Assembly (NCBI GenBank): GCA_949879855.1 | Contig: CATLBX010000003.1 | Location: 1-41,067, forward strand | From: an uncultured Coriobacteriia bacterium | GTDB taxonomy: Bacteria; Actinomycetota; Coriobacteriia; Coriobacteriales; QAMH01 | Direction: 5' to 3' | DNA: 41,067 bases | In this document: positions 15,001 to 32,872 of the stretch, in pieces | Layout of the letters: each line of letters starts with the position of its first letter | How positions within the stretch are numbered: the first letter of the stretch is position 1 | The notes under the pieces: generated by a model | The model's input: the letters and a program-made list of their open reading frames with translations, nothing else | Database searches by the model: none | Told to the model about the DNA's origin: nothing | Made by a program: the position numbers and the translations under genes

Positions 15001-18000
15001 ACCTACACGCTGCCCACCTCGACGGTGACGCGTAGCGGCTACACGCTCAAGGGCTGGACGAACAGCCAGTACGCGAGCGGTGTCGATGCGGCCACGATCA
15101 TCTCCGACCTCAAGGGCATCAAGTCCCAGAACGCCTACACGGCCGTGAGCGCCAGCACGGGCCGCGACGCCGTGACCGGCAAGGTCTTCACCGCCGTGAC
15201 AAGCGGGGGACAGACCCTCTACATCATGCCGACGGGCAACGTGACGCTCTACGCCACCTGGCGCGCCAACGACGACACGCAGTACCTCGTCGAGCGCTGG
15301 GTCGTCTCCGGCGATGGCACCCGCTATGCGGTCACCTCCGACGGCAAGCTCATCCGCGATACCAACGGCAAGCTCGTGACCAGCTCGACTGCCGATGCGA
15401 GCCACGTCGTCAAGCACGTGGGCATCACCGACGAGGAGGCCTGGGCCGACGCGAACGTGGCCGGAACGAGCTACCGCAACGACGATTCCGCGCTCACCTT
15501 CGCCGGCTACGCCTTCGCGGCCAACGGCGAGACGGTCATCGCCAAGGACGGCGCGACCGCCTTCACCACCATCGCCCGCAAGGTCATCACCGGCGACGGC
15601 AAGATGGTCCTCGTGCTGTACTACAAGCCCAAGCTCAACACCATCACCTTCAACTTCGGCAGCGGCACGAGCACCGGCGCGCCCGCGACGATGCAGGTCT
15701 ACACCGACCAGACCGTCGAGCTGTCCGCCGATGCCGAGCGCACGGGCTACGACCTGGTCGGCTGGTCCAACGTCTCGACCTACAGCGTGAAGGTCGACGG
15801 CGCCACCACGGCCACGACCGTCAACGTCGGCACCTCCAAGGGCCTGGCCTCCCAGGCCGCCGCCGACGCGGCCAAGGCCAATACCAAGCGCACCTCCGAC
15901 AAGGGCGCCGCCTTCACCGCCGTGACAATCGGGGGACAGACCCTCTACATCATGCCGACCGACGCGAGCATCACGCTCTACGCCACCTGGCGCGCCAAGT
16001 CCGACACCGTCTTCTACGTCGACCGCTACAAGGTCACCGGTGACGGCGTGGTCGTGCCCATCGACGCGAACGGCAAGGACCTCGCGGCCCTCGTCTCGCT
16101 GCGCTTCACCGGCGTCACCGACGAGACCGCCACCGCCGGCGCCAAGAGCGGCCCGAAGCCCTGGAACACCGCCGCCTACGGCACCCTGGCCGGCTACTAC
16201 ACGATCGCCAACGGCACGAGCGACCGCGTCATGCTCAAGGACGGCAGCGGCTACGTCGTCATGACCACCATCAGCGCCGGCGTCATCGCCGGTGACGGCA
16301 GTCTGCACCTCGTCGTCTACTACTTCCCGCTGGCAGACCGCGTCCTCGACCTCGACGTCGGCGACGGCACCTGGGAGCCCGGCAAGGAATCCCAGTACAG
16401 CGGCAACAAGCACGCCACCGAGTCGAGCTTCACGCTGCCCACCAACGCCGACGTCAAGCGCCCGGGCTACACGCTCGTGGGCTGGGCCATCGACAAGAAC
16501 GGCCTCATGGCCGCCGGAAAGGACACCGCCAAGGGCGCGGCGTCGCAGAAGTCCTACCTCACGCTCGCCGCCGGCAAGACCGGTTACATCGCCGATGGCG
16601 GCGCCGAGTGGATCGCCGTGATTTCCGGCTACGATGCGTCGACCTTCACCTACACCTTCATCGGCGCCGATGACGTCATCTACGTCATGCCCACGAACGC
16701 CAAGGTCATGCTGCGTGCCGTGTGGCGCGCCAACGACAACACGCCGTATTACGTGTCGCGTTGGGGCATCAACGGCGATGGCATCGCCTTCCCGTTCAAG
16801 CAGGACGGCACGGTCGACATGAACGGCGACCAGATCGTGATTCATGACGATCCTGCGTGGATCAAGGCCAACTACGTCGTCCACTACGGCATCACCGACG
16901 AGATTGCCTGGGCCGATGCGAACGTCGACGGCGTCTCCTATCGCAACGCCGACAACATCGAGGTGAACGGCTACAGGTACCTCCCGACCGACGATCCCGC
17001 GTTCGACTCGATCGGCGGCAGCCTCAACACGATGGCCCGCGCGGTCATCAAGGCCGATGGCAGCATGGTGCTCATGCTCTACTACAACGCCAAGGACAAC
17101 ATCACCTACTCCGTCTACCACGTGCGCGTCACCGGTGACGGCACGGTCAAGAACCTCGTCAAGCAGGAGTTCATGAAGAAGAACAACTCCTACGTCACCG
17201 TCGACAACCTCGATTACAACGGCCTCGACGACAGCCGCTTCCTCGGCTACGAGTACGTCGACTCCATCGTCATCAACGGCGTCACCTACTACTCGCATAT
17301 TGCCGGTAACGTCTACGACGGCCTCATCCTGTATCGCTACTACAAGGCCATCTACGACGAGGGTGACAAGGGCATCCACCTCGAGCTCAATCCCGGAATG
17401 GGCATCTGGGTGAACACCGGCGAGTCCACGCCGTCGATGATTCCCGGCACCTCGAACAGCTCGCACGACACCTTCGCCGCCGAGACCACGATCACGCTTC
17501 CGGGCGCCGACCAGCTCTATCGTCCCGGCTACGAGTTTGTCGGATGGTCCGACATGCCCGACGGTGCGGATGCGAAGGGCAACTACTCCGTGATCACGTC
17601 CGACCACCTGATGAGCGTCGATCCCGAGACGGGCCAGTACACCGATGTGCTGCGCGCCCTCATCATGAGCCTGCTCTCGCAGCGCATGGAGGATGCCGAG
17701 AACAGGGCGATCGAGGTCGATGGCGACAACCCGACCTACAAGTTCCTCGACCATCTCTACATCGCGCCCGACGGCAAGTTCCTCGTCCCGACCAAGACCA
17801 TCAGGCTCCACGCGATCTGGCGCGCCCGCACCGACACGAAGTACACGGTCAGCCATTGGTGGGTCGACCAGTACGGCGTGGCGCACGAGATCGAGGACAG
17901 CAGGCTCAACCTCGAGGGCATGACCGACGAGAACGTGTACGGCTCCAAGCTCGACGACAACCATGAGGCCGTCGCCGGTTACACGTACGTGAAGGAATAC

Positions 18001-19776
18001 CAGGGCGCGATCGTGCTCGTGCGCGACAAGAACGGAAACGCCGTCCAGGAGACCGACGAGTACGGCAACCCGCTGTTCAATGCCGATGGCCTGCCCATCT
18101 TCAAGTACGCCTACCAGCCGGCCATCGACGCGTTCGGCACGCTGCTCGCCCGCGGCATCGAGTTCGACAACCTCAACGGCGACGGCAGCACGCACCTGCG
18201 CTTCTACTACATCGCCAACAACAACACGAGATACTACGTCGAGCGCTGGGTCATCACCGGTGACGGCACGCTCGTGCCGCTCAAGGCCGACGGCACCGTT
18301 CCCCATGACGCGAACGGCAACCTGCTCGTCCACGACGCGAAGTGGGCCGAGGGCCAGCGCCTCGTCTACGTCGGCTTCACCGGCGAGATGGCGTGGGCGG
18401 ACGGCGTCGACGCGAGCGTGACCTACCGTCATCTCGATAACATCCCGGTCCTGGGCTACACCTACCTCCCGCACGGCCAGAGCGTGACAATCGGGGGACG
18501 TACCTTCACGACCCAGGCGCGCGCGATGATCGCGGGCGACGGCTCGACGGTCCTGGTCCTCTACTACGTCTTCGACGAGTCGACCCTCGTCCTCGACCCC
18601 GCCAACGGCCTCTGGACCAACACCGATGGCAAGGAGGGGACAGACCCCGCATGGTCGACTGGCAACCTGGGGACAGACCCCGACGCGCCGCGCAAGACGC
18701 TCGAGCAGCTCATCGCCGAGCAGATCGCCGCCGCTACCAAGGTGCTCTATGCCGCCGGCGGCAACATCGCCCTCGACGATCCGCGTCGCCTGCCCATCAC
18801 GCTCAAGTACGGCACCGATGCCCAGATCATGCTCCCGACCGCCGACCAGCTCCTGCGCAACGGCTACGTTCTCATCGGCTTCGTCGACGGCAACGGCAGG
18901 CAGTACGCGCCCGGCTACATCTTCACGATGCCCAGCTCCAGCATCAGGCTCATGGCCCTGTGGGCTCCCATCATCTACACCATCACCTTCGACAAGAACG
19001 ATGACGTGGCGACCGGCGCCGCGCCCGAGCAGCGCTACGAGTACGGCTCGGCGGGGACGCGCCTTGACGACGTCGATTTCGAGCGCCGCAACGGAACGCT
19101 CCTCGGATGGGCGTTCTCGCCCGACGCGGCCAGGCCCGACTTCACCGTCGGCCAGCTGATGTCGGCCCTGCTCGAGAGCGGCGTGCTCGGCCTCGTGAGG
19201 GGCGATGGCATCGACGATCCCGCGACGGCCATGTACCTGCTCGCGGCCATGGCCGGCAATGGCGGCAACGCCATCAAGCTGTATGCGATCTGGGACGTCG
19301 AGCGCCACGTCGCGGGCCTCGAGGGCTTCGAGCCCGATGTCGATGACTTCGGCCACTTCGTCACCGAAGGCGAGTATCCGGGAGGCAAGATCACGATTGA
19401 TTCGGATGGCGTCGAGCCGGGCTTCACGCTCTCGCCCGATGACGTCCTGATCGAGCTCAACCCGGACTACTACATCAAGGGCTGGAACGTGATTCGCGAT
19501 GGCGTGACCACTTACATCGAGGGCGCCGACGCGATCTTCTCGGTGACGATGGACAGTGACGTGATTTTCGCCCCGGTCTTTGGCAACTATGCCGAGGAGG
19601 AGGCCGAGGAAAGGGCACGTTACCTCGCGCAGCTCGCTGCGTACGGGACGCCCAGGACCGGTGATGACGTCATGGGCACGATGGGTCACGAGGCCGCGGT
19701 CGGGCTGCTGGCACTCCTCATTCTGGTTCTGCTCATCCGCCGTCGCAGGCAAGAGACGCCAAGCCGGGGACGATAG
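1..19776 (+). CDS. Giant cell-wall-anchored surface protein/adhesin, 5'-truncated by the window edge; Listeria-Bacteroides (InlB B-type) repeats alternating with MucBP-like modules
   Basis: Frame 1 is open from nt 1. Codons 1-7 (PGRGWYL) already continue the repeat signature, so the GTG at 22 is not the true start. The stop is TAG 19774-19776. By eye there are roughly 25-30 copies of the signature (R)PGY.(L/F).GW...DG....Y..G......LYA(V/T)W. Between them are paired ~90-130 aa modules that begin ..Y.V..(Y/W)...GDG and end DGS.VL.LYY. The C-terminus has a TPRTG motif, a hydrophobic helix and an RRRR tail. Confidence 0.9.
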   Translation, partial: PGRGWYLVGWDVTYVTGDGSVNTQTGLDVNAPATFQILGPTTFLARWKEAIIVNYLPGDHAADGAFPDPAVENETIFTHVAPLGKFPAYANSIGALPEGAVDADGASWYFAGWEIHWKLRGQEGYVGDAVSIFQVDLSQVADLTVVFPGKAEGDERVYDIDVIALWAPADYYVIFDANEPEGADAHTGIMPPKQGFLFDSKIALTNNAYVVSGYTFAGWNTKADGTGTSYADGAVTGILESFSDWFSTDPEKTLKLFAQWTAKTYDVTVDLRDGAPGTLSAGTSGVKDFIAQTITLGTASHVVYVATETYGVGVESAINLVVNKGYRLAGWEWSAVKDDGTTVTGTVTVDDGDANFGLGKLTVLGTVTAYAVFEQLSSVSYLPGDHGNWTGTATTGGTGTFFDDIRIGSAVPTFGTGNDALLVDVPGLGKLPGADDDSNWLFNGWRGSDGKVYANYVIPTDVLVTAGGMTFTALWVAKDQTLTLNANGGAFANGTADTITAIAKTDVTLPGTTDVVLTGWILDGWSLAAGGAILYAPGETIKMPTAPTTLFAHWKQDYVEVSYEVKADGSNYYGHITGPAGAGNGIVWVEQTVSDPRGTYVPAYADPSYDKLVNIKGTQSLSAVSGDALDPANLSNMLYAGPFTLTANAFEGYRFVRWVDEDGNEVSTNPSLLVTRDTLTGRYKAHTYYAIFAELESVTIDYTVSDSNVVWVDFATEAVPPVSGNPRTNVAHVSAGYVIEGWYDAAGNKVGSGDSFTPSRGADGMYVAGSYVVRVIPKTDTPFVIEYWLQDTTGAFVKDAASTVNGTGSTDLVLTINADGTISGVPADGVITLPAGNLILSFAGHSFSASASTLTGAIAADGSLALKLYYTNNTLTNPTIIYNAGTGGSVTLGSEQIDITVTPIPSPIGSTPVAAPGYQFSHWQVGDDPDMQLNIGISSLFTPPTPDGGWLEKTVYAYTAIFIELPSITINYVAGTGGSVSLGSESVRPATGTPAGSLATANSGYAFDHWEDEFGNVVMYDATNKAPAHLVPPRNADGVFVATTYTAIFVALPVDYTVQHYKVDRYGNVTLVRTDTDQAYAGTTVTATPIDTTADGLWAGYTYAPGHSGEVSVGVVMVNPTLVLKLYYTANSDTPYVVYRYQLDGNGVFTQLPSESYTGYTDDTVTTTPNVPVGYQLVADGTYASGILAGIPTQLATQLAGMFTGDGKLVLIHVFEAVKVQYVVNYWKIPGSALTQGDPLSFKAPAAPSQTFYDYTGVRVTAVPPSIPGYTYVLPSAHREMYPSVDTGVVLGDGTLVLNLYFEADYHTLTLVPNTGAGAGTWAPGYSAFGSTLLRSETETTLPTTTHLRNPGYTFKGWATENGGAVVHAPGATIAIGTADITLYAVWEANTDTPYTIERYQLNADGTITKLPNLTGTGTTGESVTTVPVAPDGYQVPTTDYITGLWDGNPVYRIDEILTGVITGDGKLKLVHVFIPVAGNYVVKIFKVDGMGNAIQVDVDGNELAAGDVLLEGYKHAGAVGSNVIVDSASATDTPGFIYHAYASNPPRGYSYLGDAVSFVVNGKTYLTIASGVIGDQTLELVIYFEPNTYELTYVTGDPTDPDAGKWVGAGDSSPATQFGYELNVPANGTLAVVTRTGYELLGWTTVATYSVRADGTIVAAGTDGLDVKEIVNARGQEAIDVATWLATLAAGTYYAAGDTFKMPANDMSLYAVWTPTLTNYYVNRYSVAKDGSVTLIDSVTRTAPTHTTAAATDADKEIVGQFYRVPGGAEPSSIDSVLITPDGLAMIKLYFDVTADTEYTVEFLRYTGTGLIEPINAFKANATSAGGAAVYDETATANPSGADTNMLLFRGYANTRIYVDQNGTDTQLIYYNNCLAKIAAAAITGYAYDATFSTVIDGKTYTTMATGIIGAGGALKLTLVFAAQQNDLIYDVNAAEDAAKGNAGWVISDQSPKPAPRTGSTVTLPDATTLYRFGYVFGGWNTMADGSGDTYAAGASFVTGNTAQTLYAVWTPGNADYFIDYYKVRGDGTVELYDSVILTGITERTVTVTDEQKNYRIPEGYAYAAGHSGEVLSGVVTGWSGNRAGDTSGALHLKLYYEPTNSTEYRVVRWAATGDGKLVAVDANGNLNFDIALEPTADGRLVQLDAKGNPVAWLNADGTQYVITSTEHRQVFDADGNPVRQPVIGEDGNPVKDESGNVVYEDVYEDVTVYNVQYRYWSLLPNGSVVPLDVAGIVDATFGAKFLDGNGCITSTLDGVTYHLPAFATPFLIVHANGKADAMANAAATTDEVTANPNVNAHDNVAIQGFEFLVHGSTTRLGDAAETKVTTVAQGSIAADGSLVLTLYYYAVRSMLTFDPGTGADGSTVGSWFNGEDLSAEYMPNEVVTLPTGTNLRRPGYTLAGWTTIKNFVENMGTDPRFSIGSDGDSLVGVAMGQTAIDLQAWLATLGGQYFTTTFTMPRGATTLYPVWLPRNDTVYTVEYYKHRGDDTVVLDATVQYTGMTDTLAKAGLVSTGMVDGVAVDDVNRYGTAFYKLVDKDGNPVLTVTDKNGKVWTALLSFNIAADGSTVLKVIYEAQEIDYTVIWYKFTGNEAFVEAKTETRRGLVDGPVSVTDADLKVAFDGYKYYPGFSLRGQRELLSADIASDGSTILKIFYEAQDVTLFLDLGSFGAWSGQEHDADKYKADRTVKLSTLVERPGYDFIGWASIADGKDTKGSASITLADAMLKALNDAIAAGTTTLDANGNIVFAYDGSGITLILASGDGNYTLGAVNVTLYAVWKARNDSVYTVQHYRVTGDGTLKPVITDTYTGITDDPINVSAEHYDYVAGTGNTAGNVAAFQGYAYAPGFSKVIGGQTLAEIAAGTILADGSLVLKLYYEAIDQSITLNTGAGAWNGSENFYNATWNADKTQGVDNTVKTETTLTVPSRDSASRPGYTLVGWTTITTYDIVGGKITAGSRYNIADATGQTARDVVAWLESLNAALAANPITGGTDPNAGRQYFACGTSFVLPAGGATLIAVWQANTNTTYTVEHHKLVMDAAGNVVDTIVLTENLTGITDEQVTGIAQTYAGYTFVANGQTAYPGQAYVTFAQGTIAGNGSLVLKLYYRANTNTKYTVERWIASADGKQLTKVDEKVLTGTTDTSVTPGSTNPLGYTLDNSFVPSTISGTGAWPNAAIPTAIIAGDGTTRIIQFYVPIDVLYTVEFYRYTGDGKVLPFNGFEASAGKNYAEFIAGGSVPVFIAGTSTGAATNVIKGWGKTSSTLSVDRPAGISASAGFTYAHLNLSAAENANFIGYTYDEAFEQVIGGVTYKTIAQGVILADGSLVLKLFYVPETLSVTYNTGSASTTVTFQKNHTSESTFKLPLETTEGPVVDRAGYTLVGWTVASHYTGSGTAESPFALAAANAAGAKSISAATGYEAQRLAAWLATLGTDPDFATHWGQTLTPDLAAQMGKTYYAQGSSFKIGVLSMNLYAVWTPTGTTEYTADIYKIKGDGTMELVGTKTYTNGVADEDTNTLAKLPAQSSADVYDKSLDTEFGLAGYRWVASTEDGQTIDAGMPANTIAHAIVSANGTTKLIFIFRAIEVEFQVKRYRVDGDGNIIEVDVDGNDITDDATAKRFTHKGLTDANVNVTATADDMAGTDASGFKGGWYYFIDNLDNVGMVTALDGSLIAAFTYDATYAGNLSTGVIAGDGSLVLKLFYLPGNFTFALDPGAGTWGTDLFDAAQTQEGTLETTTSIWYRHYGASTTITLPTASELTREGYVLAGWMVGNDVENAMRFDVLGPVITYTMPVGEVMLRPIWTGLETAYMVYHVKVRGDGTLEYYIGSNKVAAGTGEIVRGTTGLTAQVTANSYAGYEAIADLVSYTYVGADGISHTVTTAANVLIEWGGAFDGVNKGKTAVYIYYKPLVVKYTVEHWAISGDGTLYAIDADGNLLRDANGNLVASPNAVRGEHEGYSDAHIYVLGSVPADAVAGTYTTYSPWSIAGYEYVLGTIASINGKGPWTDGMLTSGIYVAPDGTLVLKLYYVAKNLTLTYDPGANGSITAGGNQGTDPVDVTHRADHTFKLPAATDEKLTVSRPGYVLKGWTTLMSYGVAADGSIVSADTAGAIVKLIADAKGAEAEAVIAWLEKLGTDPQGRPYYYLNGATFLMPTANETLYAVWTPRSDIVYTVEHWLITGDGTFSPLDKNGNVIRDANGALVTGTPNTSADASDTTNAAYRVTYNNGKSDVVFDLDAIGGYTRTVAGYTYLLNNASFTIAGATGTTYAVKTISADGKTVFYLFYRANENTIRFEVGSLGTIDGGTLDATENVNFITQKHYTDDSFDLADVPTPTRPGYDFLGWTIADKKGTDPINDAMGYTAQQIVTWLEAQNAGKGTYLKLFFKSGTNFTYLTPTGDIILRAVWTPQLVDYTINRWKVTGNGDKVELDSVTYKGYADTEVRFDAAKTEYKDGITYLKVDVPTGYRFLAAGTSEIYTGTNKLTQSFRTDAYGNVLPNGTAKFTLWYLPKTFKLELELGTLGTWNDTTTGTNTGTLKTVEYDAESVHEMLGYLSASRPGYTLVGWSSSDFSALKGEASQAKWLELAASVVGADWVRVTTVLKSDATGTSLTGYTYAYIANSYENIKYMYTMGLAGVKFYAVWRANDDTVYYVDHVRWEGNSTAKTTITEEFRGMTDKNYTATPFNTMLADPRFNTSFTGYGYNGTDPKPSTATKAVTGDGTMRITLNYFAQKLNLTLESTGGTWSTTWNPEHLTESSFNLPTNADIKRPGYTLVGWSTTNPDDGLTGNIKGLASQVKAGQLAAITGNDTANGGANWITVATTSDGKTYVFVTPGYKMPTRGQTLYAVWYANNDTKYAVERWVVSGDGVRYALKADGTLERDANGLLVTSDKADSAHSLSYVGTTDEEAWADAIDGSIVYRTNDTLLTITGYAYAADGETIVAKDGVVTIGGQTLKTDARATITGDGKMTLVLYFKPLQFTLDFYIGATSTPNLSATPARATLYADQTYTLPTSTVTRSGYTLKGWTNSQYASGVDAATIISDLKGIKSQNAYTAVSASTGRDAVTGKVFTAVTSGGQTLYIMPTGNVTLYATWRANDDTQYLVERWVVSGDGTRYAVTSDGKLIRDTNGKLVTSSTADASHVVKHVGITDEEAWADANVAGTSYRNDDSALTFAGYAFAANGETVIAKDGATAFTTIARKVITGDGKMVLVLYYKPKLNTITFNFGSGTSTGAPATMQVYTDQTVELSADAERTGYDLVGWSNVSTYSVKVDGATTATTVNVGTSKGLASQAAADAAKANTKRTSDKGAAFTAVTIGGQTLYIMPTDASITLYATWRAKSDTVFYVDRYKVTGDGVVVPIDANGKDLAALVSLRFTGVTDETATAGAKSGPKPWNTAAYGTLAGYYTIANGTSDRVMLKDGSGYVVMTTISAGVIAGDGSLHLVVYYFPLADRVLDLDVGDGTWEPGKESQYSGNKHATESSFTLPTNADVKRPGYTLVGWAIDKNGLMAAGKDTAKGAASQKSYLTLAAGKTGYIADGGAEWIAVISGYDASTFTYTFIGADDVIYVMPTNAKVMLRAVWRANDNTPYYVSRWGINGDGIAFPFKQDGTVDMNGDQIVIHDDPAWIKANYVVHYGITDEIAWADANVDGVSYRNADNIEVNGYRYLPTDDPAFDSIGGSLNTMARAVIKADGSMVLMLYYNAKDNITYSVYHVRVTGDGTVKNLVKQEFMKKNNSYVTVDNLDYNGLDDSRFLGYEYVDSIVINGVTYYSHIAGNVYDGLILYRYYKAIYDEGDKGIHLELNPGMGIWVNTGESTPSMIPGTSNSSHDTFAAETTITLPGADQLYRPGYEFVGWSDMPDGADAKGNYSVITSDHLMSVDPETGQYTDVLRALIMSLLSQRMEDAENRAIEVDGDNPTYKFLDHLYIAPDGKFLVPTKTIRLHAIWRARTDTKYTVSHWWVDQYGVAHEIEDSRLNLEGMTDENVYGSKLDDNHEAVAGYTYVKEYQGAIVLVRDKNGNAVQETDEYGNPLFNADGLPIFKYAYQPAIDAFGTLLARGIEFDNLNGDGSTHLRFYYIANNNTRYYVERWVITGDGTLVPLKADGTVPHDANGNLLVHDAKWAEGQRLVYVGFTGEMAWADGVDASVTYRHLDNIPVLGYTYLPHGQSVTIGGRTFTTQARAMIAGDGSTVLVLYYVFDESTLVLDPANGLWTNTDGKEGTDPAWSTGNLGTDPDAPRKTLEQLIAEQIAAATKVLYAAGGNIALDDPRRLPITLKYGTDAQIMLPTADQLLRNGYVLIGFVDGNGRQYAPGYIFTMPSSSIRLMALWAPIIYTITFDKNDDVATGAAPEQRYEYGSAGTRLDDVDFERRNGTLLGWAFSPDAARPDFTVGQLMSALLESGVLGLVRGDGIDDPATAMYLLAAMAGNGGNAIKLYAIWDVERHVAGLEGFEPDVDDFGHFVTEGEYPGGKITIDSDGVEPGFTLSPDDVLIELNPDYYIKGWNVIRDGVTTYIEGADAIFSVTMDSDVIFAPVFGNYAEEEAEERARYLAQLAAYGTPRTGDDVMGTMGHEAAVGLLALLILVLLIRRRRQETPSRGR
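3163..18960 (+). repeat. Intragenic protein-level super-repeat: one LB repeat followed by 1-2 MucBP-like modules, about 16-17 units of variable length
   Basis: The junction LYAVW(T/R/E)(A/P)N(T/D)DT.Y.V(E/D)(R/H)(Y/W) recurs, for example near 4150, 5140, 6030, 7400, 8330, 9050, 10410, 12470, 13195, 13900, 14520, 15255, 15985, 16725 and 17815. Units are diverged (neighbouring units about 50-60% aa identity by eye), so this is not a recent perfect DNA tandem repeat. Confidence 0.7.
7239..18681 (+). repeat. 16 in-frame copies of the GGGGACAGACCCC mini-hairpin element inside the giant CDS, plus 2 degenerate copies
   Basis: Core start positions are 7239, 8554, 8964, 9697(-), 10281, 10310, 11884(-), 12138, 12384, 13032, 14501, 14830, 15205, 15931, 18636 and 18669. 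Degenerate copies are at 11141 and 18493. They translate as GTDP or GGQTL in forward orientation and GSVP in reverse. I saw none in nt 1-7238. Confidence 0.85.
19645..19773 (+). other. Candidate sortase sorting signal (LPXTG-variant TPRTG, TM helix, positively charged tail)
   Basis: The C-terminal sequence is ..AAYG-TPRTG-DDVMGTMGHE-AAVGLLALLILVLLI-RRRRQETPSRGR. TPRTG is encoded at 19648-19662. Confidence 0.55.
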
Positions 19777-19778
19777 GC

Positions 19779-19938
19779 GGGGGACAGACCCTCGGCAGGC
19801 GGGGGACAGACCCCCGCTTCGTCCGCCGGTGAAAGAATGGGGACAGACCCCCGATTGCCAGCTCCCATATCCGCCGGTGAAAGAATGGGGACAGACCCCC
19901 GCTTCGTCCGCCGGTGAAAGAATGGGGACAGACCCCCC
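19779..19938 (+). repeat. Cluster of 5 mini-hairpin elements immediately after the giant gene stop codon
   Basis: Cores are at 19779, 19801, 19839, 19887 and 19924. The last three share the composite unit ccgccggtgaaagaatGGGGACAGACCCCCgcttcg, with 48- and 37-nt spacing. Confidence 0.9.
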
Positions 19939-20000
19939 GCTTCGAATCTCCGCATCTGCCCCCATGGTTCGCCCAAGCCCGTGTCGTCACGAAGCGATGC

Positions 20001-20006
20001 TATAAT
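20001..20006 (+). promoter_or_regulatory. Candidate -10 box (TATAAT) for the 20044 gene
   Basis: A perfect TATAAT lies 38 nt upstream of the ATG, in the context TATAATTGCC. The same context is seen at 23382. No convincing -35 box was found. Confidence 0.3.
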
Positions 20007-20043
20007 TGCCCGAGCAGACTGACCTTCGAAAGGCACCAAACGC

Positions 20044-20697
20044 ATGAATAACGAGCCAATGTACAACGCGTTCATCAAGAACCGCGAGCAGGTGGACAAT
20101 CAGTCGTCAAAACCCAGGAACAAACGCAAGGGCGATCGCGTCAAGGCGGACGATCTTCCCGACTTCGATTTCGACGTCGAAGAGCCGGGTGAAGATGTCG
20201 CGAGTGGTTTTGCCCAGGGCCCGGTAGTCGGTGTCGACAGGACGCTTGGAAGCTATCCGGAGTTTCTCAGGCACGACGTCGAAGACGACGCCTTCGATGC
20301 TTGTGACGAGCCGCTTACCAGCGAGCCGTTCGAATTCGAGGACGGGTGCGTCAGCCTGCCTCACCCCGACGTCTTCAACTCGTATCCTCCCGAGGTACAG
20401 CGTAAGATCATGGAATGGACCGATCGTGACATCCGTGCCCGTCGTGATGACGAATCGCGCCGCCAAGACGCGATATTGCGAGCCAACATCGCACGCGACA
20501 AAACGAAGATGGCCGTTCCCGTCGTCATCGTCATCCTGTGCATCGTCTGTGCGGCGATTACCGGCCTGTATACGAAAAACGCGCTCTTCGTGATCGCGTT
20601 TCTCGTCGTTGCGCTCGTCGTGATCATCGCGCTTTTCGTGAGCCGCTACGAGCAAAGCAGGCGCGGTCACTTCCACTCTCAATACCCAAAGCCATAG
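20044..20697 (+). CDS. Hypothetical membrane protein, DUF2335-like
   Basis: The 217-aa ORF has an acidic N-terminal half. It then carries YPPEVQRKIMEWTDRDIRARRDDESRRQ followed by two hydrophobic helices, which resembles DUF2335 from memory. A strong terminator follows. Confidence 0.55.
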   Translation: MNNEPMYNAFIKNREQVDNQSSKPRNKRKGDRVKADDLPDFDFDVEEPGEDVASGFAQGPVVGVDRTLGSYPEFLRHDVEDDAFDACDEPLTSEPFEFEDGCVSLPHPDVFNSYPPEVQRKIMEWTDRDIRARRDDESRRQDAILRANIARDKTKMAVPVVIVILCIVCAAITGLYTKNALFVIAFLVVALVVIIALFVSRYEQSRRGHFHSQYPKP

Positions 20698-20715
20698 GGC
20701 AGGCTTACGTCGCAC

Positions 20716-20743
20716 AAGAGCCCCTTCCCGGGGCTCTTTTTTT
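20716..20743 (+). terminator. Rho-independent terminator
   Basis: An 8-9 bp stem (AAGAGCCCC / GGGGCTCTT) with a 5-nt loop is followed by a T7 run. Confidence 0.7.
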
Positions 20744-20769
20744 CGTGCCATCAACCAGGAGTCTCAAAT

Positions 20770-20829
20770 GGGGGGGTCTGTCCCCCTATTGCCACCTGCA
20801 GCCGAGTTCTTGATCGGGGGTCTGTCCCC
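20770..20829 (-). repeat. Two reverse-orientation mini-hairpin elements upstream of the RAYT-like gene
   Basis: GGGGGGGTCTGTCCCCC lies at 20770-20786 and GGGGGTCTGTCCCC at 20816-20829. Their reverse complements read ggtggcaataGGGGGACAGACCCCC and ggtgctaatgaGGGGACAGACCCCC. Confidence 0.9.
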
Positions 20830-20998
20830 TCATTAGCACCGAGGCAGTGGAGGCATGGTCGTATCCGCATTTACTCGGAAATCGCTCCGTTTCGACTTCG
20901 ATCGATGTCCGAGATTGCTCAGATTCCCGGGGTGGTTTGCTCGGATGTTTCCGATGTAGCCTATTTCCGCAGAAGGCCTGACGGAAAGGAGGTGCAGT

Positions 20999-21796
20999 GT
21001 GCCGCGCCAGCCACGCAGACAATCGTCAACCGGGTATTACCACATCACGAACCGTGGCGTTGGCAAAGCGCGGGTCTTTAACGACGGCAACGATCACTCG
21101 TTCTTCATAGATTGCCTGCGGCTTGCACAGCGGGTCTGTCGCTTCAAGGTTCTCGCATATTGCATAATGACCACGCATTTCCATATCGTCATCAAGTGCG
21201 AGGGCGCCGTTCCAACATCCCTTTTCCAGAGCATAGGAGCACGGTTTTCGGCCTATTACCACAAGAGGCACAAATGCTCTGGGCAAATATTCCAGGGCCG
21301 CTTTCGCAGCGAGGCAATCGAGACGGACAGACACCTTCTCTCTGCGATTCGCTATGTATGGCGCAATCCCGTCAAGGCCCACCTCTGTTCCTGCTTGGCC
21401 GCCTATCCGTGGAGTAGCTACAATTTTCTGGGCAAGTCGGGTGGCTTAATCGACGACGAGCTTCTTTGCAGCTTCATGAGCGCCGATGAGTGGAGGGCCT
21501 TCGCGTTGCAGGAAGTGGACGACCGCCATCTCGAGCCTTTTTCCCTGCGACTGTCGGACAGTTCCGCTCGGAAGCTGGTTCGTGAAGGGTGCCGGCAGTT
21601 CGGCGGTGTGCCAAGGGATGCTCTCGAGAAACCAGAGTGCCCTCCTGCACTTGCCGTGTGCCTGGATGCGGGGATGACCGTGGCGCAAATTGCCAGAATC
21701 CTGAACATCACCGCAACCGGTATGTATCGCGCATTGCGGAAATGGGGCCGGCAGGTTCCGAGGGCATGCACCCTCGAGGCGTCGAGCAGTCCGTAA
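20999..21796 (+). mobile_element. Y1/HUH tyrosine transposase of the IS200-like superfamily, RAYT-like (REP-associated), with a C-terminal HTH region
   Basis: The start is GTG 20999, preceded by GGAAAGGAGG. The HUH motif is H60-F-H62 (TTHFHIVI). The block GQIFQGRFRS is present, and the catalytic-Tyr motif is IR-Y119-VWRNPVKA...YPWSSY. The C-terminal region MTVAQIARILNITATGMYRALRKW looks like an HTH. No TnpB/IS605 orfB partner is present. Confidence 0.8.
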
Positions 21797-21801
21797 TCAG
21801 G

Positions 21802-21825
21802 CAAACAATCGGGATTGACCGCCCC
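21802..21825 (+). repeat. Possible decayed forward copy of the element just after the RAYT stop codon
   Basis: The sequence caaacaatcgggattgaccgcccc compares with the consensus tgacaatcgggggacagacccc. The 5' extension matches, but the core has about 2 substitutions and 1 insertion. This call is weak. Confidence 0.25.
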
Positions 21826-21890
21826 GTCCCTCGAAAGATTTGGTACCCTGTCGAATAACAAACCAATTAACCTTCCGAGAGGATAATGAA

Positions 21891-23156
21891 ATGCCCCAGG
21901 ACATGATAAGCGTCGACGAAGCACGCCAAAGAACGATTGCCCTCGCGAGCGAAGCTCGTTTCAGGACGCCGGTCGAGAAGGTTGACCTGTTCGCTGCCGT
22001 CGGACGTGTTGCCGCAGCAGACCTTTCGAGCGATATCGACGTCGCGCCATTCGACAATACGGCAATGGACGGTTTTGCCGTGGTCGCGTCCACCCTCGCG
22101 GGTGCGAGTGAGGACAGCCCGGTCGAGTTGGACATCGTCGATTGGGTCGGCGCGGGGGTTGTCAGCCAGGTTGTCCTCAAACCCGGCGAGGCGATTCGCA
22201 TCATGACGGGCGGTATCATGCCTGAAGGGGCCGATGCCGTTGTCAAGATAGAGGATACGACCTTCACCGGAGACGGTGGCGTGGGCGAGCGTGTCCGCAT
22301 ATGCGCTCCCGTGACCAAGACGAACGTGCGCAAGGCGGGCGAAGAGGCCAAAGCGGGCGATGTCGTCGTCCGCAAGGGCGAGGTGATTCGCGCCGCGACC
22401 GTCGGTTTGCTCGCAAGTACCGGAAACACGACCATCCCCGTGCACGCCCGTCCCAAAGTCGGCGTTATCAGCATCGGTACCGAGCTCGTTGCGCCTCCGG
22501 CAAAGCCCGAACCGGGAAAGATTCGTGATGCGAATGCGTACGTGTTAGGCGCCTACGCGCTTGATCTCGGATGCGAGGTGAACCTATACCCGATTGTCGA
22601 AGATGATGAGACGGCCATTCGCGCCCTGTTCGAGCGGGCGATTGACGAGTGCGACTTCGTCGTTTCGAGCGGCGGGGCGAGCAACGGCGACTTCGATTAC
22701 GCCATCGAGACCATACGCGAGTTGGGCGAAGTCGTCTTCGACTGCGTGAGCCTGAGGCCGGGCAAGGCCCAGGCATTCGGTTGCGTGGGCGACACGCTCG
22801 TCGAAGTTCTTTCGGGTAATCCCGCTGCCGCGGCGGTGGGCTTCCAGCTTTTCGGTCGTCCTGCACTACGCGCCATGCAGGGATTCGCGGAGCTTGACCG
22901 TCCGGTCAGCGACGCCGTTCTTGCGCAGCCGACGCGCAAGAAGGAACCCCGCGCCTTCTATCAGAGGGGACATCTCGAGGTGGGGGAGGATGGCCAGCTG
23001 CTCGCATGCCAGGAGGAAAAGCAGTCGTCCGCCCTGCTGTCGGAGATGAATCGCAGCACCGTGCTCATCGAGCTTCCGCAAGGCACCGGCACGTTCGAAG
23101 CCGGGACGCCGGTCAAGTGCCTCCACTTGGATATTGACGAGGGCGTCGTTATCTAG
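21891..23156 (+). CDS. moeA: Molybdopterin molybdenumtransferase MoeA
   Basis: ATG 21891 follows GAGAGGA. The N-terminus is MPQDMISVDEARQ... Family-typical blocks are present: PFDNTAMDGFAV, IMTGGIMPEGADAVV, ISIGTELV and SSGGASNGDFDY. Confidence 0.85.
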   Translation: MPQDMISVDEARQRTIALASEARFRTPVEKVDLFAAVGRVAAADLSSDIDVAPFDNTAMDGFAVVASTLAGASEDSPVELDIVDWVGAGVVSQVVLKPGEAIRIMTGGIMPEGADAVVKIEDTTFTGDGGVGERVRICAPVTKTNVRKAGEEAKAGDVVVRKGEVIRAATVGLLASTGNTTIPVHARPKVGVISIGTELVAPPAKPEPGKIRDANAYVLGAYALDLGCEVNLYPIVEDDETAIRALFERAIDECDFVVSSGGASNGDFDYAIETIRELGEVVFDCVSLRPGKAQAFGCVGDTLVEVLSGNPAAAAVGFQLFGRPALRAMQGFAELDRPVSDAVLAQPTRKKEPRAFYQRGHLEVGEDGQLLACQEEKQSSALLSEMNRSTVLIELPQGTGTFEAGTPVKCLHLDIDEGVVI

Positions 23157-23180
23157 GCCCAGCGACACGTTGATAGTAGA

Positions 23181-23211
23181 AACCGCCTCCTTCGCGAGGC
23201 GGTTCTTTTTT
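23181..23211 (+). terminator. Rho-independent terminator after moeA
   Basis: A 9-bp stem (AACCGCCTC / GAGGCGGTT) with a 6-nt loop is followed by a T6 run. Confidence 0.7.
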
Positions 23212-23228
23212 GCCCCCGATGGCAGCAT

Positions 23229-23299
23229 GGGGACAGACCCTCTTATGTCATACGTAATAATCCGGGGACAGACCCCCGACAATAAGGGGACAGACCCCC
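23229..23299 (+). repeat. Cluster of 3 forward mini-hairpin elements
   Basis: Cores are at 23229, 23264 and 23286. They are followed by a 12-nt direct repeat, cccgaatccgac x2. Confidence 0.9.
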
Positions 23300-23381
23300 G
23301 AATCCGACCCCCGAATCCGACCACCCTCAAACCCTCTCGAAGCTCAGGGGATGTCCGCCTCTTCCGCATGGTCGCGCTGGG

Positions 23382-23387
23382 TATAAT
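23382..23387 (+). promoter_or_regulatory. Candidate -10 box (TATAAT) for the LarE-like gene
   Basis: TATAATTGCC lies 31 nt upstream of ATG 23418. The -35 box is weak. Confidence 0.3.
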
Positions 23388-23417
23388 TGCCTCGACAAAA
23401 CCATTTCGAGGAGACCG

Positions 23418-24248
23418 ATGTCCGTCCAAACTCCAAACGAGAAGTACGACGCCCTGGTCATCCGCCTTCGTTCCCTCAAGAGCGTGGCGGTTGCCTTTTC
23501 GGGCGGCGTTGACTCCGCGTTGCTGCTGCATGCCGCGCACGAGGCGCTTGGCGATAGGACGGTTGCGATTACGGCGCGATCGCGCCTTTTTCCGCAACGC
23601 GAACACGACGAAGCCGTTGCGTTTTGCAGTGACCGCGACATCCCGCACGTCATCGTCGACACGCACGAGCTCGAAGACGAGGCGTTCCGGCAAAATCCGC
23701 CCAATCGCTGCTATCTCTGCAAAACGGGGCTACTGCGCGTCATCGTCGATGTTGCGACCGGGCGCGGGGCCGAACATGTCGTCGAGGGGTCGAACACTGA
23801 CGACGAGAGCGACTACCGTCCAGGTGCCCAGGCGATACTCGAGCAGGGGGTGATGAGCCCGCTCAAAGACGCCGGTCTCTCAAAGCGCGAGATACGCGAT
23901 TTGTCGCGAGAGAAGGGCCTTCCCACCTGGAACAAGCAGTCGTTCGCGTGTCTTGCGTCGCGTTTTGCGTTCGGCGAGGTCATTAGCGAGGAGCGCCTCG
24001 ACATGATCGACGCAGCGGAGCAGGTTCTTCTCGAAAGGGGAATTCGGCAAGTTCGCGTGCGCTTCCATGGGCCAATTGCGCGCATCGAGGTGCAGCCGGA
24101 CGATTTCGCGCGTCTTGTCGATCCGGATGTTCGAGAGGATGTCACCCGAAACATCAGGGCGCTTGGATTCAAGTACGTGACGCTTGACCTTGAAGGCTAC
24201 CAGACAGGCAGCATGAACATGACAATTGGGGGACAGACCCCCAATTAA
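23418..24248 (+). CDS. PP-loop ATP-utilising enzyme, LarE-like (sulfur transferase family)
   Basis: The SGGVDS PP-loop is present (AVAFSGGVDSALLL), as are RCYLCK and the LarE-type cysteine motif SFACLASRF. The last 8 codons (NMTIGGQTPN) are encoded by a copy of the repeat element. Confidence 0.75.
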   Translation: MSVQTPNEKYDALVIRLRSLKSVAVAFSGGVDSALLLHAAHEALGDRTVAITARSRLFPQREHDEAVAFCSDRDIPHVIVDTHELEDEAFRQNPPNRCYLCKTGLLRVIVDVATGRGAEHVVEGSNTDDESDYRPGAQAILEQGVMSPLKDAGLSKREIRDLSREKGLPTWNKQSFACLASRFAFGEVISEERLDMIDAAEQVLLERGIRQVRVRFHGPIARIEVQPDDFARLVDPDVREDVTRNIRALGFKYVTLDLEGYQTGSMNMTIGGQTPN

Positions 24249-24450
24249 GACCCTCAACCGAGATCCCCAACTGAAATCCCCAGTTGCCTCCCATTAAACG
24301 GGTTCCAATCGCCCGGAAGCCCACCCTCCCGCCTCTGGCCGATGTGCCGTCTCGCTCCCCATCGTCCTCAATCGTGCCGACCGCGCAAGCTCGTGACCGA
24401 TGCCCTATACTTGCAATCAATCTATCTATCGTTTTGCACAAGGAGAGCTC

Positions 24451-24870
24451 ATGAGCGAATCACGCGCAGGTTGGTATCCGGACCCTTCGGGCAATCCGTC
24501 GAAGCTTCGATACTGGGACGGAAGCCAATGGACCGATGACTATGCGGATAGCCCCTCGAACGCGCAGGATACGCCGGCATCCGAAGAGGCCCTATGCCAG
24601 GTGCAGGCTGTCGACAGCGCGCAGGTTTCATATGGCATGACCTCGCAGGACTCGACGCTGCGCCTCATCGCCTTCGTTTTCTGCCTCATTTCTACCGTGA
24701 CGGCGGGATGGATGCTCATTCCTTTGGCGTGGATGATTCCGATGTCCGTGCATGCCTGGGGAATTTACAAGGGCAAGAAGCCGAACACCGTCGCGTTTGG
24801 CGTGTGCACGCTGATTTTCGTGAGCCTCATAGGTGGCATACTGCTCCTTGTCTCCAAAAAGGACGCCTAG
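24451..24870 (+). CDS. Membrane protein with an N-terminal DUF2510 (GWYPDP...WDG..WT) motif
   Basis: ATG 24451 follows AAGGAGAG. The motif reads GWYPDPSGNPSKLRYWDGSQWT. The C-terminal half contains 2-3 hydrophobic helices. Confidence 0.65.
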   Translation: MSESRAGWYPDPSGNPSKLRYWDGSQWTDDYADSPSNAQDTPASEEALCQVQAVDSAQVSYGMTSQDSTLRLIAFVFCLISTVTAGWMLIPLAWMIPMSVHAWGIYKGKKPNTVAFGVCTLIFVSLIGGILLLVSKKDA

Positions 24871-24903
24871 CTTCATTCCGCAAGATGATGGGTGGGTGAC
24901 AAA

Positions 24904-25028
24904 GGGGGGACAGACCCCCCTCTTCGTGCCGCCCCCCATCCCGCGCACCTCCAAGCGCCTGCTCGACTTGGAGGCCGAGTAATCGCGCACTGCGATTCTT
25001 CCTGCGTAACAATATGGGGACAGACCCC
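24904..25028 (+). repeat. Two forward mini-hairpin elements
   Basis: ggtgacaaaGGGGGGACAGACCCCCC lies at 24904-24920 and has 6-bp arms. cgtaacaatatGGGGACAGACCCC lies at 25016-25028. Confidence 0.9.
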
Positions 25029-25140
25029 GCATTCCCCGCACACTTTATTCAGTTCGTCATATAGTGTGCACGTACGCCACACAATGGCCACCAGCCCTGC
25101 GTCATGACAACGCGGGAGAGAGCGGAAGTGGGTTCACCTT

Positions 25141-26445
25141 ATGAAGACCAGCAAGATCAAGAAGGCCGACGGCAAGATCATCCTCGAGGTGACCGCCAAC
25201 GCTGATGACGTCAACAGGGCATTCACCCTCGCAGAATTCGACTTTGCCAACTCGATGGGCATCAATCCCGAGCCCGGGAAGACCATCGAGCAGGTCGCCG
25301 AGGAGAAGATGGGCATCAAGAACCTCGACTCCATCATCGAGGCCAACGCCGTCGAGGCGCTCGCGCCTTTCGCGGTCGACCAGAGCGGCATCGCCCCGGC
25401 GTTCCCTCCGCATCCCACGCCCAGCACGGCGCTCAAGCGCAATCAGGAATTCGCCTTCACCATGGAGGTGACCCCCAAGCCGGATTACGAGCTCACCTCG
25501 TACGATCCCGTCGAGATCACTCTTCCCGAATTCACCATCAACGAGGCCGAGGTCGACGCGCAGATCCAGCAGCTTGCCGAGCGCAACACCACTTACGTCG
25601 CCGCCGACCCCAAACCGCTTGCGAAGGGGGACGCGTGCCTCCTGTCCATCAAATGCTACGAGGACGGCAAGGAGCTCACTGGCCTCACCACCGAGGGACG
25701 CACCTACGTTGCGGGCGAGGGGTACATGCCCGCCGACTTCGACGCGCACATCTTCGGCATGGAGCCGGGCGAGACGCGCAAGTTCGTCTTCGAGGGCCCG
25801 AGCGTTGACGAGAATTACAACGAGTTCACGCAGAAGTTCGACTGCGAGGTCACGCTGAAGGAGATCCAGAAACCCGTCACTCCCACCATCGATGACGAGT
25901 GGCTTGCGACGAACCTTCCCATGTACAAGAATCTCGAGGACTTGCGCGGCGAGATTCGCAGGAGCATCGAGCATCGCGATTCCGAGCAATACGAGGCGTA
26001 CAAGCGCCAGATGGTCGCAAGCGCGCTTGGCGAGCGCTTCGAGGGCAAGATCGCCGACGAGGTGTACGAGAACGCGCGGGACAACCTCATGAAGAACATC
26101 CGTATGGGCCTTCAACAGCAGGGCATGAGCTGGGAAGACTACGTGCAGCAAAACGGCGGCGAACAGCAGATGAACATGATGCTCATGCTGCAGACGCGCG
26201 AGATGGTCGTGCAGGGGTACGCGCTCGATGCGATCTTCCGTCATGAGAACCTCGGCCTTTCCGAGGACGATATCGACGAGGCATGCCATATGATGGCGCC
26301 CCAGGTCAACCCCAAGCAGGTTCGCCAGCAGATTGAGAACGAGGGCAAGAACTTCGTGCTCCGCGAGTCCGCGGAGCGTCTCAAGGCGAACAAGTGGGCC
26401 GCTGACCAGGCGAAGGTCACCATCCAGAAGCAGCCGCAGGCCTAA
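25141..26445 (+). CDS. tig: Trigger factor
   Basis: The 434-aa protein has a three-domain layout. A central FKBP-like block reads KGDACLLSIKCYEDGKEL...FGMEPGETRKFVFEGP, and the C-terminal arm domain is helical. The assignment is by eye. Confidence 0.75.
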   Translation: MKTSKIKKADGKIILEVTANADDVNRAFTLAEFDFANSMGINPEPGKTIEQVAEEKMGIKNLDSIIEANAVEALAPFAVDQSGIAPAFPPHPTPSTALKRNQEFAFTMEVTPKPDYELTSYDPVEITLPEFTINEAEVDAQIQQLAERNTTYVAADPKPLAKGDACLLSIKCYEDGKELTGLTTEGRTYVAGEGYMPADFDAHIFGMEPGETRKFVFEGPSVDENYNEFTQKFDCEVTLKEIQKPVTPTIDDEWLATNLPMYKNLEDLRGEIRRSIEHRDSEQYEAYKRQMVASALGERFEGKIADEVYENARDNLMKNIRMGLQQQGMSWEDYVQQNGGEQQMNMMLMLQTREMVVQGYALDAIFRHENLGLSEDDIDEACHMMAPQVNPKQVRQQIENEGKNFVLRESAERLKANKWAADQAKVTIQKQPQA

Positions 26446-26472
26446 TTGACGCCAACATAGCGCGAGGAAATC

Positions 26473-26511
26473 CGCGCCGAAGGGGATCCGCCTCCTTCGG
26501 CGCCTTCTTTT
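26473..26511 (+). terminator. Rho-independent terminator after tig
   Basis: A 10-bp stem (GCGCCGAAGG / CCTTCGGCGC) is followed by cttcTTTTT. Confidence 0.65.
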
Positions 26512-26521
26512 TGATGGCAGC

Positions 26522-26672
26522 CGGGGGACAGACCCTTCCACATCACCGCAGGCGAAAACCGGGGGACAGACCCCTAATTCCGGTTCCGGTGCTCCATTCG
26601 TGACAGCCGGGGGACAGACCCCTCCATGAACCGATTCCATGAACCGACCCCGCAAACCGGGGGACAGACCCC
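26522..26672 (+). repeat. Cluster of 4 forward mini-hairpin elements between convergent genes
   Basis: Cores are at 26522, 26560, 26609 and 26659. Two copies share the 3' flank CTCCATG(A/G)A. Confidence 0.9.
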
Positions 26673-26711
26673 TCCATGGAGACCCCCGCGAACCCCATAT
26701 GTCGCCGCATG

Positions 26712-26759
26712 CAAAAAGACACCGAAGAGACCGTTGGGCAGGAGAGGTCTTCTTCGGTG
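26712..26759 (-). terminator. Rho-independent terminator for the minus-strand FKBP operon
   Basis: About 13 bp of stem (26720-26732 pairing with 26746-26759, one bulge). The A5 run at 26713-26717 gives a U-run on the minus-strand transcript. Confidence 0.6.
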
Positions 26760-26795
26760 CCTTTCTCGGCAGAGGACTTAAAGGGGGATGGTGGG

Positions 26796-27221: not shown

Positions 27222-27285
27222 GCCGGTCCTTTCGTTGCGCAGGCAACGTCGCGAAAGACGCCTCTGCTCGTTCGAGGATGGTTGT

Positions 27286-27450: not shown

Positions 27451-27684
27451 GGTTTCCTCTCCTCTTCATCGGATGCAGGGCCGCCAGACTCTGGCGAGTG
27501 CGCCCTCATCACCTATGCGAGAGCGACCCGTATGAAATTCCGGCGTCCATCAGATGGTAGTTCCCAGCTCAGCGCCTGCATATCGTATGAAAGGTATGAG
27601 ATTGGTCGCGAACTATCAAACTCCCCGCTCGATGACTTGCTGCTCACCGAGACGATAGGGTGTGCATCGATGATGGGTAACGGA

Positions 27685-27747: not shown

Positions 27748-27778
27748 TTTTTCCCAGAGAGACATTCAGGAGGAAATC

Positions 27779-29050: not shown

Positions 29051-29056
29051 CAACGA

Positions 29057-32857: not shown

Positions 32858-32872
32858 CCGCTTCGCGCACGA

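Follow-up and report, generated by a model that had tools for sequence, protein, structure and literature searches.

To our knowledge, systems in which a REP-associated tyrosine transposase (RAYT) is paired with repetitive extragenic palindromic (REP) sequences have been studied almost only in Proteobacteria, and the chemistry of the underlying HUH/Y1 enzymes is established for TnpA_REP and for IS608 TnpA. The known system closest to the one described here is the Escherichia coli pairing of TnpA_REP (YafM; structure 4ER8) with REP sequences and bacterial interspersed mosaic elements (BIMEs), together with RAYT Groups 2 and 3 of Bertels et al. (2017; PMC5581495), in whose survey RAYT genes are recognized by their single copy, vertical inheritance and absence from plasmids. 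RAYT genes with long terminal inverted repeats, as well as REPs in coding regions, were reported by Di Nocera et al. (2013; PMC3733652), a paper in whose main text the words "Firmicutes" and "Actinobacteria" are absent; one of these two surveys names Clostridia once and Firmicutes or Actinobacteria never, and the other names none of the three (PMC5581495; PMC3733652). Here, we describe a 41,067-nucleotide stretch of contig CATLBX010000003.1 from an uncultured Coriobacteriia bacterium (hereafter the window) that carries a RAYT-type gene and 57 copies of a 24-nt repeat. We consider it probable that this gene is a domesticated RAYT, combining an HUH/Y1 single-stranded DNA (ssDNA) nuclease-ligase domain with a C-terminal helix-turn-helix (HTH), and that the repeat is its cognate element.

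The gene occupies 20999..21796 on the forward strand, opens with a GTG start codon 7 nt downstream of an AGGAGG ribosome-binding site, and encodes a RAYT-type Y1/HUH enzyme of 265 aa, with the catalytic domain spanning residues ~1-150. The initial annotation of this DNA, made from the letters alone, had picked out an H-F-H version of the HUH motif and an RY(V/I)..NP catalytic-tyrosine motif in this open reading frame (ORF), and both hold up. The codons for H60-F61-H62 lie at 21176..21184 (+) and align with the HMH of 4ER8, and the codon for the catalytic Tyr119 lies at 21353..21355 (+) within R118-Y119-V-W-R-N123-P124, the tyrosine aligning with that of DYIYINP in 4ER8. Across 31 aligned homologues there is no variation at H60, H62, Y119, N123 or P124, nor at positions Y136, W138 and S140 of a YPWSS motif, and the suggested check against the Pfam Y1_Tnp profile returned a match of 25.5 bits (cut-off 23). 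Toward the C-terminus, a predicted HTH (residues ~216-249; 21644..21745, +) is indicated by sub-threshold Pfam matches to HTH_7, HTH_17 and HTH_8 at residues 222-249, by three helices in the AlphaFold2 model of the protein (pLDDT 83, pTM 0.65), and by matches of the family profile to HTH regulators and to the HTH of the IS21 transposase. The gene is flanked by a 217-aa membrane protein gene upstream and by moeA downstream, and the ORFs of the locus include no TnpB/orfB partner beside it, also as initially annotated.

Four independent comparisons (NCBIfam, PDB sequences, family profile and Foldseek) agree in placing the protein with RAYTs, and for this reason we favor RAYT over IS200. In NCBIfam, the sole matching model is the RAYT model NF047646 (E=9e-21), whose score of 74.3 bits falls below the curated equivalog cut-off of 80, and no IS200 model matches the protein; across the family, 31 of 31 members match NF047646, with the IS200 model matching one of the 31, weakly. 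A single-protein search of PDB sequences gave 4ER8 as the best hit, albeit a weak one (E=0.21), in an alignment that pairs HFH with HMH and RYVWRNPVK with DYIYINPVK. The family profile reached 4ER8 at E=1e-5 over residues 38-142, and the IS200-type chains 2EC2, 2F4F and 2XM3 at E=0.06-0.4 over the HUH strand only. Foldseek, run with the predicted model, ranked 4er8_A first (E=4.3e-8, target TM 0.72, 144 columns), followed by IS608, ISDra2 and Sulfolobus TnpA at E ~5e-5 to 4e-4 (~1000-fold weaker for IS608 and ISDra2). Judged by sequence and predicted fold, the closest solved relative is E. coli TnpA_REP, ahead of the IS200, IS608 and ISDra2 transposases, and the protein is best read as a divergent RAYT branch rather than a strict equivalog of NF047646.

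The gene also behaves as a host gene. Orthologues at 94, 78, 71, 69, 60, 52, 52 and 47% identity (loci L014, L008, L015, L016, L013, L010, L012 and L100) all lie directly upstream of moeA, making nine lineages with the window. The shared order is membrane protein, RAYT, moeA, and a gene for a ~200-217-aa protein is present on the other side of the RAYT in eight of the nine, the L012 contig starting 165 nt before the gene. There is one RAYT gene copy within the window, and among 185,579 representative genomes the close family is confined to three "uncultured Coriobacteriia" metagenome-assembled genomes with one match each. Plasmid and phage collections contain rare, distant relatives only (<35% identity). 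The ratio of nonsynonymous to synonymous substitution rates (dN/dS) is 0.08-0.09 against the L014 and L008 orthologues, and 0.06 for the neighboring moeA against L008. This is a single-copy, vertically inherited gene under purifying selection and not an insertion sequence, and it shows the properties by which Bertels et al. (2017; PMC5581495) recognize RAYTs, with copy counts drawn from the window and the three representative genomes.

The repeat itself reads GGTGACAA-N3-GGGGACAGACCC(C/T) in its full 24-nt form. Its core, GGGGACAGACCCC, occurs 56 times in the window at no more than one mismatch, against 0.06 expected and with none of 100 shuffles reaching that count; counting the 12-mer core gives 57 copies, dispersed over 7239..40809 with 48 on the forward and 9 on the reverse strand. 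The description of the window as saturated with a short hairpin repeat is borne out as far as the repeat is concerned (57 copies vs ~0.06 expected). Roughly 37 copies fall in ~4.9 kb of intergenic DNA and 20 (~35%) inside ORFs, for a density of ~1.4 copies per kb overall and ~7.5 per kb in intergenic DNA, a ~14-fold intergenic enrichment, and copies are mostly co-oriented with genes and located after stop codons. No 11-mer is more frequent in the window than the core, which also flanks the RAYT gene. The mini-hairpin GGGG(G)-ACAGA-CCCC(C) is all that typical copies form, the two beside the RAYT among them, and these copies fold no better than shuffles. Genuine hairpins of 9 bp occur in a few window copies (z = -3.9), and the sister species L008 has at least one of 12 bp (z = -3.7). 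The arms vary by species, with GGCAAT/ATTGCC in L008, L015 and L016 and CACG/CGTG in L010, and the element carries no GTAG or CGTC tag. Rfam returned no match for the window at gathering thresholds and none for the locus at E up to 1. We also considered a DNA uptake sequence or a Chi/KOPS-like skewed oligomer; the density would fit either, but the intergenic enrichment, the arrays and the tie to a Y1 gene across taxa do not.

Several further observations concern where the copies sit. Exact arrays are found at 31068-31268, 29057-29191 and 19780-19936, one example consisting of five copies at 47-nt spacing that make up a 94-nt super-unit, and it is at these arrays that blocks of repeat-bearing sequence distinguish the window from L014. 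The giant ORF upstream of the RAYT holds 16 in-frame copies within 7239-18681, read as GTDP or GGQTL, and the element core is free of stop codons whichever of the six frames is read. An MFS transporter gene (27716-29050) has two copies in its central loop (27735-28447), read as EGLSPN..QGSVP; this loop contains two copies in the window and in L008 and four to five in L013, the rest of the protein being visibly near-identical. The ORF at 23418-24248 terminates within an element copy (24229-24248). When the giant ORF is compared with its orthologue at the repeat-free locus L099, the in-gene copies fall in variable loops, and this comparison revealed no clean insertion boundary ("empty site") for intragenic copies.

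Inverted copies surround the gene, on a larger scale than was first described. Two reverse-strand copies lie upstream, GGTGGCAATAG-GGGGACAGACCCC at 20773..20796 (core 20773-20785, 224 nt before the start codon) and GGTGCTAATGA-GGGGACAGACCCC at 20817..20840 (core 20817-20829, 180 nt before it), and their position and orientation are kept in six lineages. Their inverted partners are three forward copies at 23218..23298 (+; cores at 23229, 23264 and 23286), ~70 nt after the moeA stop. Both sets had been located correctly in the initial annotation, which took the RAYT to be bracketed by them and pointed to a possible decayed forward copy at 21802-21825, just past its stop codon. The inverted copies upstream and beyond moeA stand; the decayed copy, and with it the bracketing of the RAYT alone, is not supported. 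This site, in the RAYT-moeA spacer (21797..21890, +), scores -9.7 bits on a position-weight matrix of the 57 copies, as against 13.7 bits for the weakest genuine copy and top scores of 8.5-14.7 bits in shuffled sequence, and it folds no better than shuffles. Because it recurs in nearly identical form in the orthologous spacer of L008, a 78%-identity species, it is better explained as a conserved moeA leader than as a recently decayed copy. Inverted copies therefore bracket the RAYT-moeA pair, and not the RAYT alone, at the window locus. The same layout, with two reverse copies upstream and two or three forward copies ~70 nt past moeA, occurs in six of the nine lineages; in L010 and L100, most or all of the upstream copies point forward.

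Between the upstream copies and the start codon lies the RAYT leader (20841..20998, +), a presumed promoter region in which TCGGAAATCGCTCCG and TCCGAGATTGCTCAG form direct repeats and GGGGTGGTTTGCTCGG, rich in G, stands ~70 nt ahead of the GTG. Conservation of the leader (20860-20998) extends to L008 and throughout the clade. Rfam has no match for it, its predicted fold is not significant, and it may be an operator for the HTH domain.

The link between gene and repeat rests first on a comparison of related loci. All nine RAYT-bearing loci carry the repeat, and in each relative with a RAYT the core ranks first among 11-mers, with 5-34 copies in 7-21 kb. Five other loci (L094, L095, L097, L098 and L099) have no RAYT adjoining moeA and zero core copies. 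Four of these were fetched through distant MoeA homologues (L094 at 61%, L095 at 65%, L097 at 51% and Eggerthella lenta L098 at 50% identity); the fifth, L099 (MoeA 74%), retains the giant-ORF, membrane-protein, moeA order, with no RAYT detectable by tblastn and no copies in 14.6 kb, and L100, with a MoeA of 76% identity, has both RAYT and repeat. Gene and repeat strictly co-occur among the related loci sampled: nine have both, five have neither, and no repeat-bearing locus without the gene, of the kind that the initial annotation named as counter-evidence, was found. One lineage has in addition changed its core throughout. In L010 (GCA_964435565.1), whose RAYT is 52% identical to that of the window, GGGGTCAGACC replaces GGGGACAGACC, with 17 copies of the new core and ~0-1 of the window type.

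A second line of evidence comes from more distant homologues. We assembled 77 loci (27-41% identity, mostly Bacillota) chosen by protein alone, and with eight close loci examined 85 in all. The motif GGGGACRG lies within 400 nt of the gene in 74 of the 85, and on both sides in 37. The usual layout in distant homologues is a forward hairpin ~60-70 nt before the ATG and a reverse hairpin 5-50 nt after the stop, the best copy at 40 loci having a 7-bp stem and a 13-nt loop, GGGGACGGTTCNN. All seven stem pairs covary across taxa (130 double-change cells vs 35 in shuffles); copies were selected for at least 6 of 7 pairs, so that the 96% pairing is partly by construction, which does not apply to the covariation. 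In some genomes these hairpins form dense inverted doublets (25 in 21 kb at L076, 23 in 13 kb at L092). Two divergent paralogues in the metagenome-assembled genome RUG12259 (L063 and L065) are each flanked by their own loop variant, GGGGACGGTTC and GGGGACAGGTTCC. Across the family, each homologue is paired with its own hairpin variant. In the Bacillota set (L017-L093), the upstream hairpin often has a right arm that overlaps, or lies directly against, a TTGACA box resembling a -35 promoter element, which suggests that the hairpin, or protein binding to it, could control expression of the gene in these homologues.

Two of these loci bridge the distant hairpins and the window element. At the Hespellia locus L044, the top 11-mer is GGGACAGACCC, with 16 copies, some adjoining its RAYT, and arm sequences CCAGAGGG/CCCTCTGG; as this RAYT is not sister to the Coriobacteriia clade, its identical core arose independently or was transferred, and did not come through descent of the gene. 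At the Atopobiaceae locus L079, the RAYT (31% identity) is directly bracketed by 54-nt inverted repeats (9885-9938 and 10805-10858) that are 89% complementary and contain GGTGACA-NTT-GGGGACAGAG-A-GGTGACAAT; their gene-proximal end, GGTGACA-NTT-GGGGACAGAG, equals the arm plus core of the window element, with the minus copy upstream and the plus copy downstream as in the window. We also looked in the window for relics of Bacillota-type end hairpins. The GGGGTGGTTTGCTCGG motif at -68 and a minus-strand GGGGCGGTCAATCCC after the stop show no significant fold (z = +0.2 and +0.9), and a covariance model of the Bacillota hairpins (R1) does not score either site. The gene appears from these comparisons to belong to a large, mostly Gram-positive clade in which genes typically lie between short inverted hairpins sharing a conserved GGGAC-containing loop. 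The two hairpin types seem to share a recognition theme (GGGAC...), which we do not take as proof of common descent.

The enzyme-repeat link put forward in the initial annotation is supported by the co-occurrence, by the core switch and by the family-wide pairing with hairpins, and we infer from analogy with TnpA_REP and IS608 TnpA that the enzyme mobilizes the 24-nt element. On that analogy, the enzyme would bind the element as ssDNA through its GGGG-ACAGA-CCCC mini-hairpin and conserved 5' GTGACAA arm, Tyr119 would cleave, with the HUH histidines H60 and H62 holding the metal, and the strands would be rejoined. Such cleavage and rejoining would seed and turn over element copies, and tandem arrays would then expand and contract through unit duplication. 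The HTH probably binds double-stranded DNA, serving either autoregulation at the conserved leader or recognition of the element.

A number of observations weigh against a cognate pairing of this kind. The absence of RAYT from the repeat-free relatives was assessed at the locus beside moeA, and the MoeA tree cannot place L099 as a loss of the system or as a lineage that never had it (54 of 100 bootstraps). No element occupies a new site relative to the 96.3%-identical L014 over 20 kb, and slippage could yield the whole-unit array changes that are seen. The element has lost most of its right hairpin arm in the window species, what remains being barely complementary to the left arm (3.5 of 8 positions), and most copies fold no better than shuffles. 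The Bacillota model R1 misses the window elements, its best hit (E=0.74) being an unrelated terminator at 20715-20739; because of this failure, the case for homology of the element types rests on their shared GGGGAC..G..C core together with the bridging loci L044 and L079. The sub-cut-off NF047646 score belongs here too. Finally, the element departs from the RAYT-REP norm, in that it is not an extragenic, GTAG/CGTC-tagged palindrome in inverted doublets: 48 of the 57 copies share one orientation and 20 of the 57 are intragenic.

Some of these points would be accommodated if the gene were a RAYT-type relic or host gene and the repeat spread and persisted without it, the two co-occurring through shared ancestry only. 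The repeat would then be a motif under host selection, for instance a terminator, a site to which a protein binds or a hairpin at RNA 3' ends, and slippage and recombination would have multiplied it. The larger differences between the window and L014, its closest relative, measure 21, 26, 84 and 87 nt, and in each case repeat-bearing sequence has been gained or lost within an array; the predominance of gene-co-oriented copies after stop codons fits as well. The nine repeat-bearing lineages, moreover, form one clade or nearly so in the MoeA tree, which implies few independent events. Shared ancestry would not, however, be expected to place related hairpins beside homologues in other phyla, to give two paralogues in one genome a variant each, or to put the window core beside the separate RAYTs of L079 and L044, and the lineage-wide core switch in L010 implies either that copies turn over from a master copy or that a binding partner co-evolves with them. 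We regard a repeat independent of the gene as unlikely, though it is the strongest of the alternatives.

A little less likely still is that the protein does recognize the elements and yet now serves some purpose other than transposition. The repeats would be old and no longer mobile, and the protein could regulate through its HTH, take part in recombination, structure the genome, or process RNA or DNA. The strong purifying selection and the gene order fixed across deep divergence are compatible with such a role, as are the HTH domain, the conserved leader with its direct repeats, and the lack of recent new-site insertions. On the other side, the HUH and tyrosine catalytic residues are invariant, and the lineage-specific core replacement and the copy-number differences at orthologous sites show ongoing turnover. 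As for an ordinary IS200/IS605-family insertion sequence lying by chance among unrelated repeats, the Pfam family is indeed named "Transposase IS200 like", but this explanation is highly improbable given that the protein matches the RAYT model and no IS200 model in NCBIfam and has 4ER8 as its best relative by sequence and fold instead of clustering with multi-copy IS200 elements, that the gene is single-copy at the same locus at 47-94% identity with a dN/dS resembling that of moeA, and that there are no near-identical copies in the window or the three representative genomes, no tnpB and, in keeping with the earlier remark that IS ends were not obvious, no same-strand pair of subterminal hairpins at a left and a right end.

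Returning to the domesticated RAYT with its cognate repeat, a fuller picture can be offered, tentatively and with less confidence than the pairing itself. The locus may represent the first recognized Coriobacteriia RAYT-REP system, part of an undescribed, phylum-spanning Gram-positive clade of Y1 proteins with a C-terminal HTH that read a GGGAC-containing hairpin loop and not a GTAG-tagged stem. Here the element would have shrunk to a 24-nt half-hairpin, present about once per 700 bp and tolerated in all reading frames within genes, where the peptides GTDP, GGQTL, GLSP or GSVP would be built into a giant surface protein and into the loop of a transporter. Our full-text literature search found no description of the core sequences or of RAYT in Actinobacteria or Clostridia, most subscription-journal papers lying outside that search.

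The wider neighborhood deserves brief mention. The giant repetitive surface protein gene upstream of the RAYT (22-19776; 6584 aa) begins at the window edge; its orthologue in L008 (L008 1-8894) is called at 15,059 aa, and a shorter giant-type ORF in L100 has Flg_new repeats. The high third-position GC content (GC3 0.92) of the giant gene probably accounts for a 2694-aa antisense "ORF" (11881-19965, -) and further long overlapping ORFs, which are not genes, and the GC skew of -0.08 on the forward strand is likely dominated by the same codon bias and was not used. Downstream, 29272-40521 encodes a membrane-anchored LuxR/GerE regulator (29272-31017), MFS transporters and two molybdopterin oxidoreductase plus 4Fe-4S operons (33463-36246 and 37589-40521), a gene content that we take to be typical of Eggerthellaceae-like gut Coriobacteriia. 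The window MoeA is 50% identical to that of Eggerthella lenta.

The locus provides a Gram-positive, human-gut example of a probable RAYT-REP system, with a natural contrast in relatives that lack the gene at the locus and also lack the repeat. The lineage-wide core switch could reveal co-evolution of enzyme and DNA, and the in-frame copies show repeats becoming parts of proteins. A candidate substrate, the 24-nt element carrying GGTGACAAnnnGGGGACAGACCCC, and three catalytic residues make the system well suited to a direct biochemical test. In practical terms, short-read assemblies of these gut Coriobacteriia are probably broken up by a repeat that exceeds one copy per kb; most contigs recovered were just 1-15 kb.

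Set against other known systems, the window protein shares with IS200/IS605 TnpA proteins (IS608, ISDra2) the HUH/Y1 superfamily and the expected ssDNA hairpin chemistry, but IS608 and ISDra2 are weaker matches and are multi-copy elements with same-strand left-end and right-end hairpins, often with tnpB, none of which is found at the window locus. Rickettsia palindromic elements are short repeats (~100-150 bp) lying in-frame inside protein-coding genes, and we know of no dedicated Y1 enzyme for them; the window element is similarly in-frame in genes, but is 24 nt long and has a candidate enzyme. The likeness to E. coli is closer. The window protein resembles TnpA_REP in its predicted HUH/Y1 fold and catalytic motifs, at 17% identity to 4ER8 in the fold alignment, and differs from it in ~110 extra C-terminal residues with an HTH, a domain not in the E. 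coli protein. As in the E. coli RAYT-REP system, the gene is single-copy, vertically inherited and not carried on plasmids, the sequence flanking it is the most abundant short repeat (measured here in the window and orthologous loci), and inverted copies lie on both sides, with the bracket here also enclosing moeA. The element, in contrast, is ~24 nt with no GTAG tag, and in this species retains a mini-hairpin of only 4-5 bp along with its conserved 5' arm; its copies stand mostly in same-orientation arrays and not in the doublets known as REPINs, and ~35% of them are inside ORFs and in-frame, unlike extragenic REPs. At ~1.4 per kb, it is also much denser than E. coli REPs, which occur at roughly 0.1-0.2 per kb. 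Some of these departures have precedents in the survey of Di Nocera et al. (2013; PMC3733652): L079 shows the same arrangement as their RAYTs with terminal inverted repeats, and the giant ORF and MFS gene of the window the same as their coding-region REPs. The tag is neither that of their CGTC nor that of their GTAG superfamily, the conserved part here being a GGGAC-containing loop. The system is best filed beside RAYT-REP, to which it adds an HTH domain and an untagged 24-nt element.

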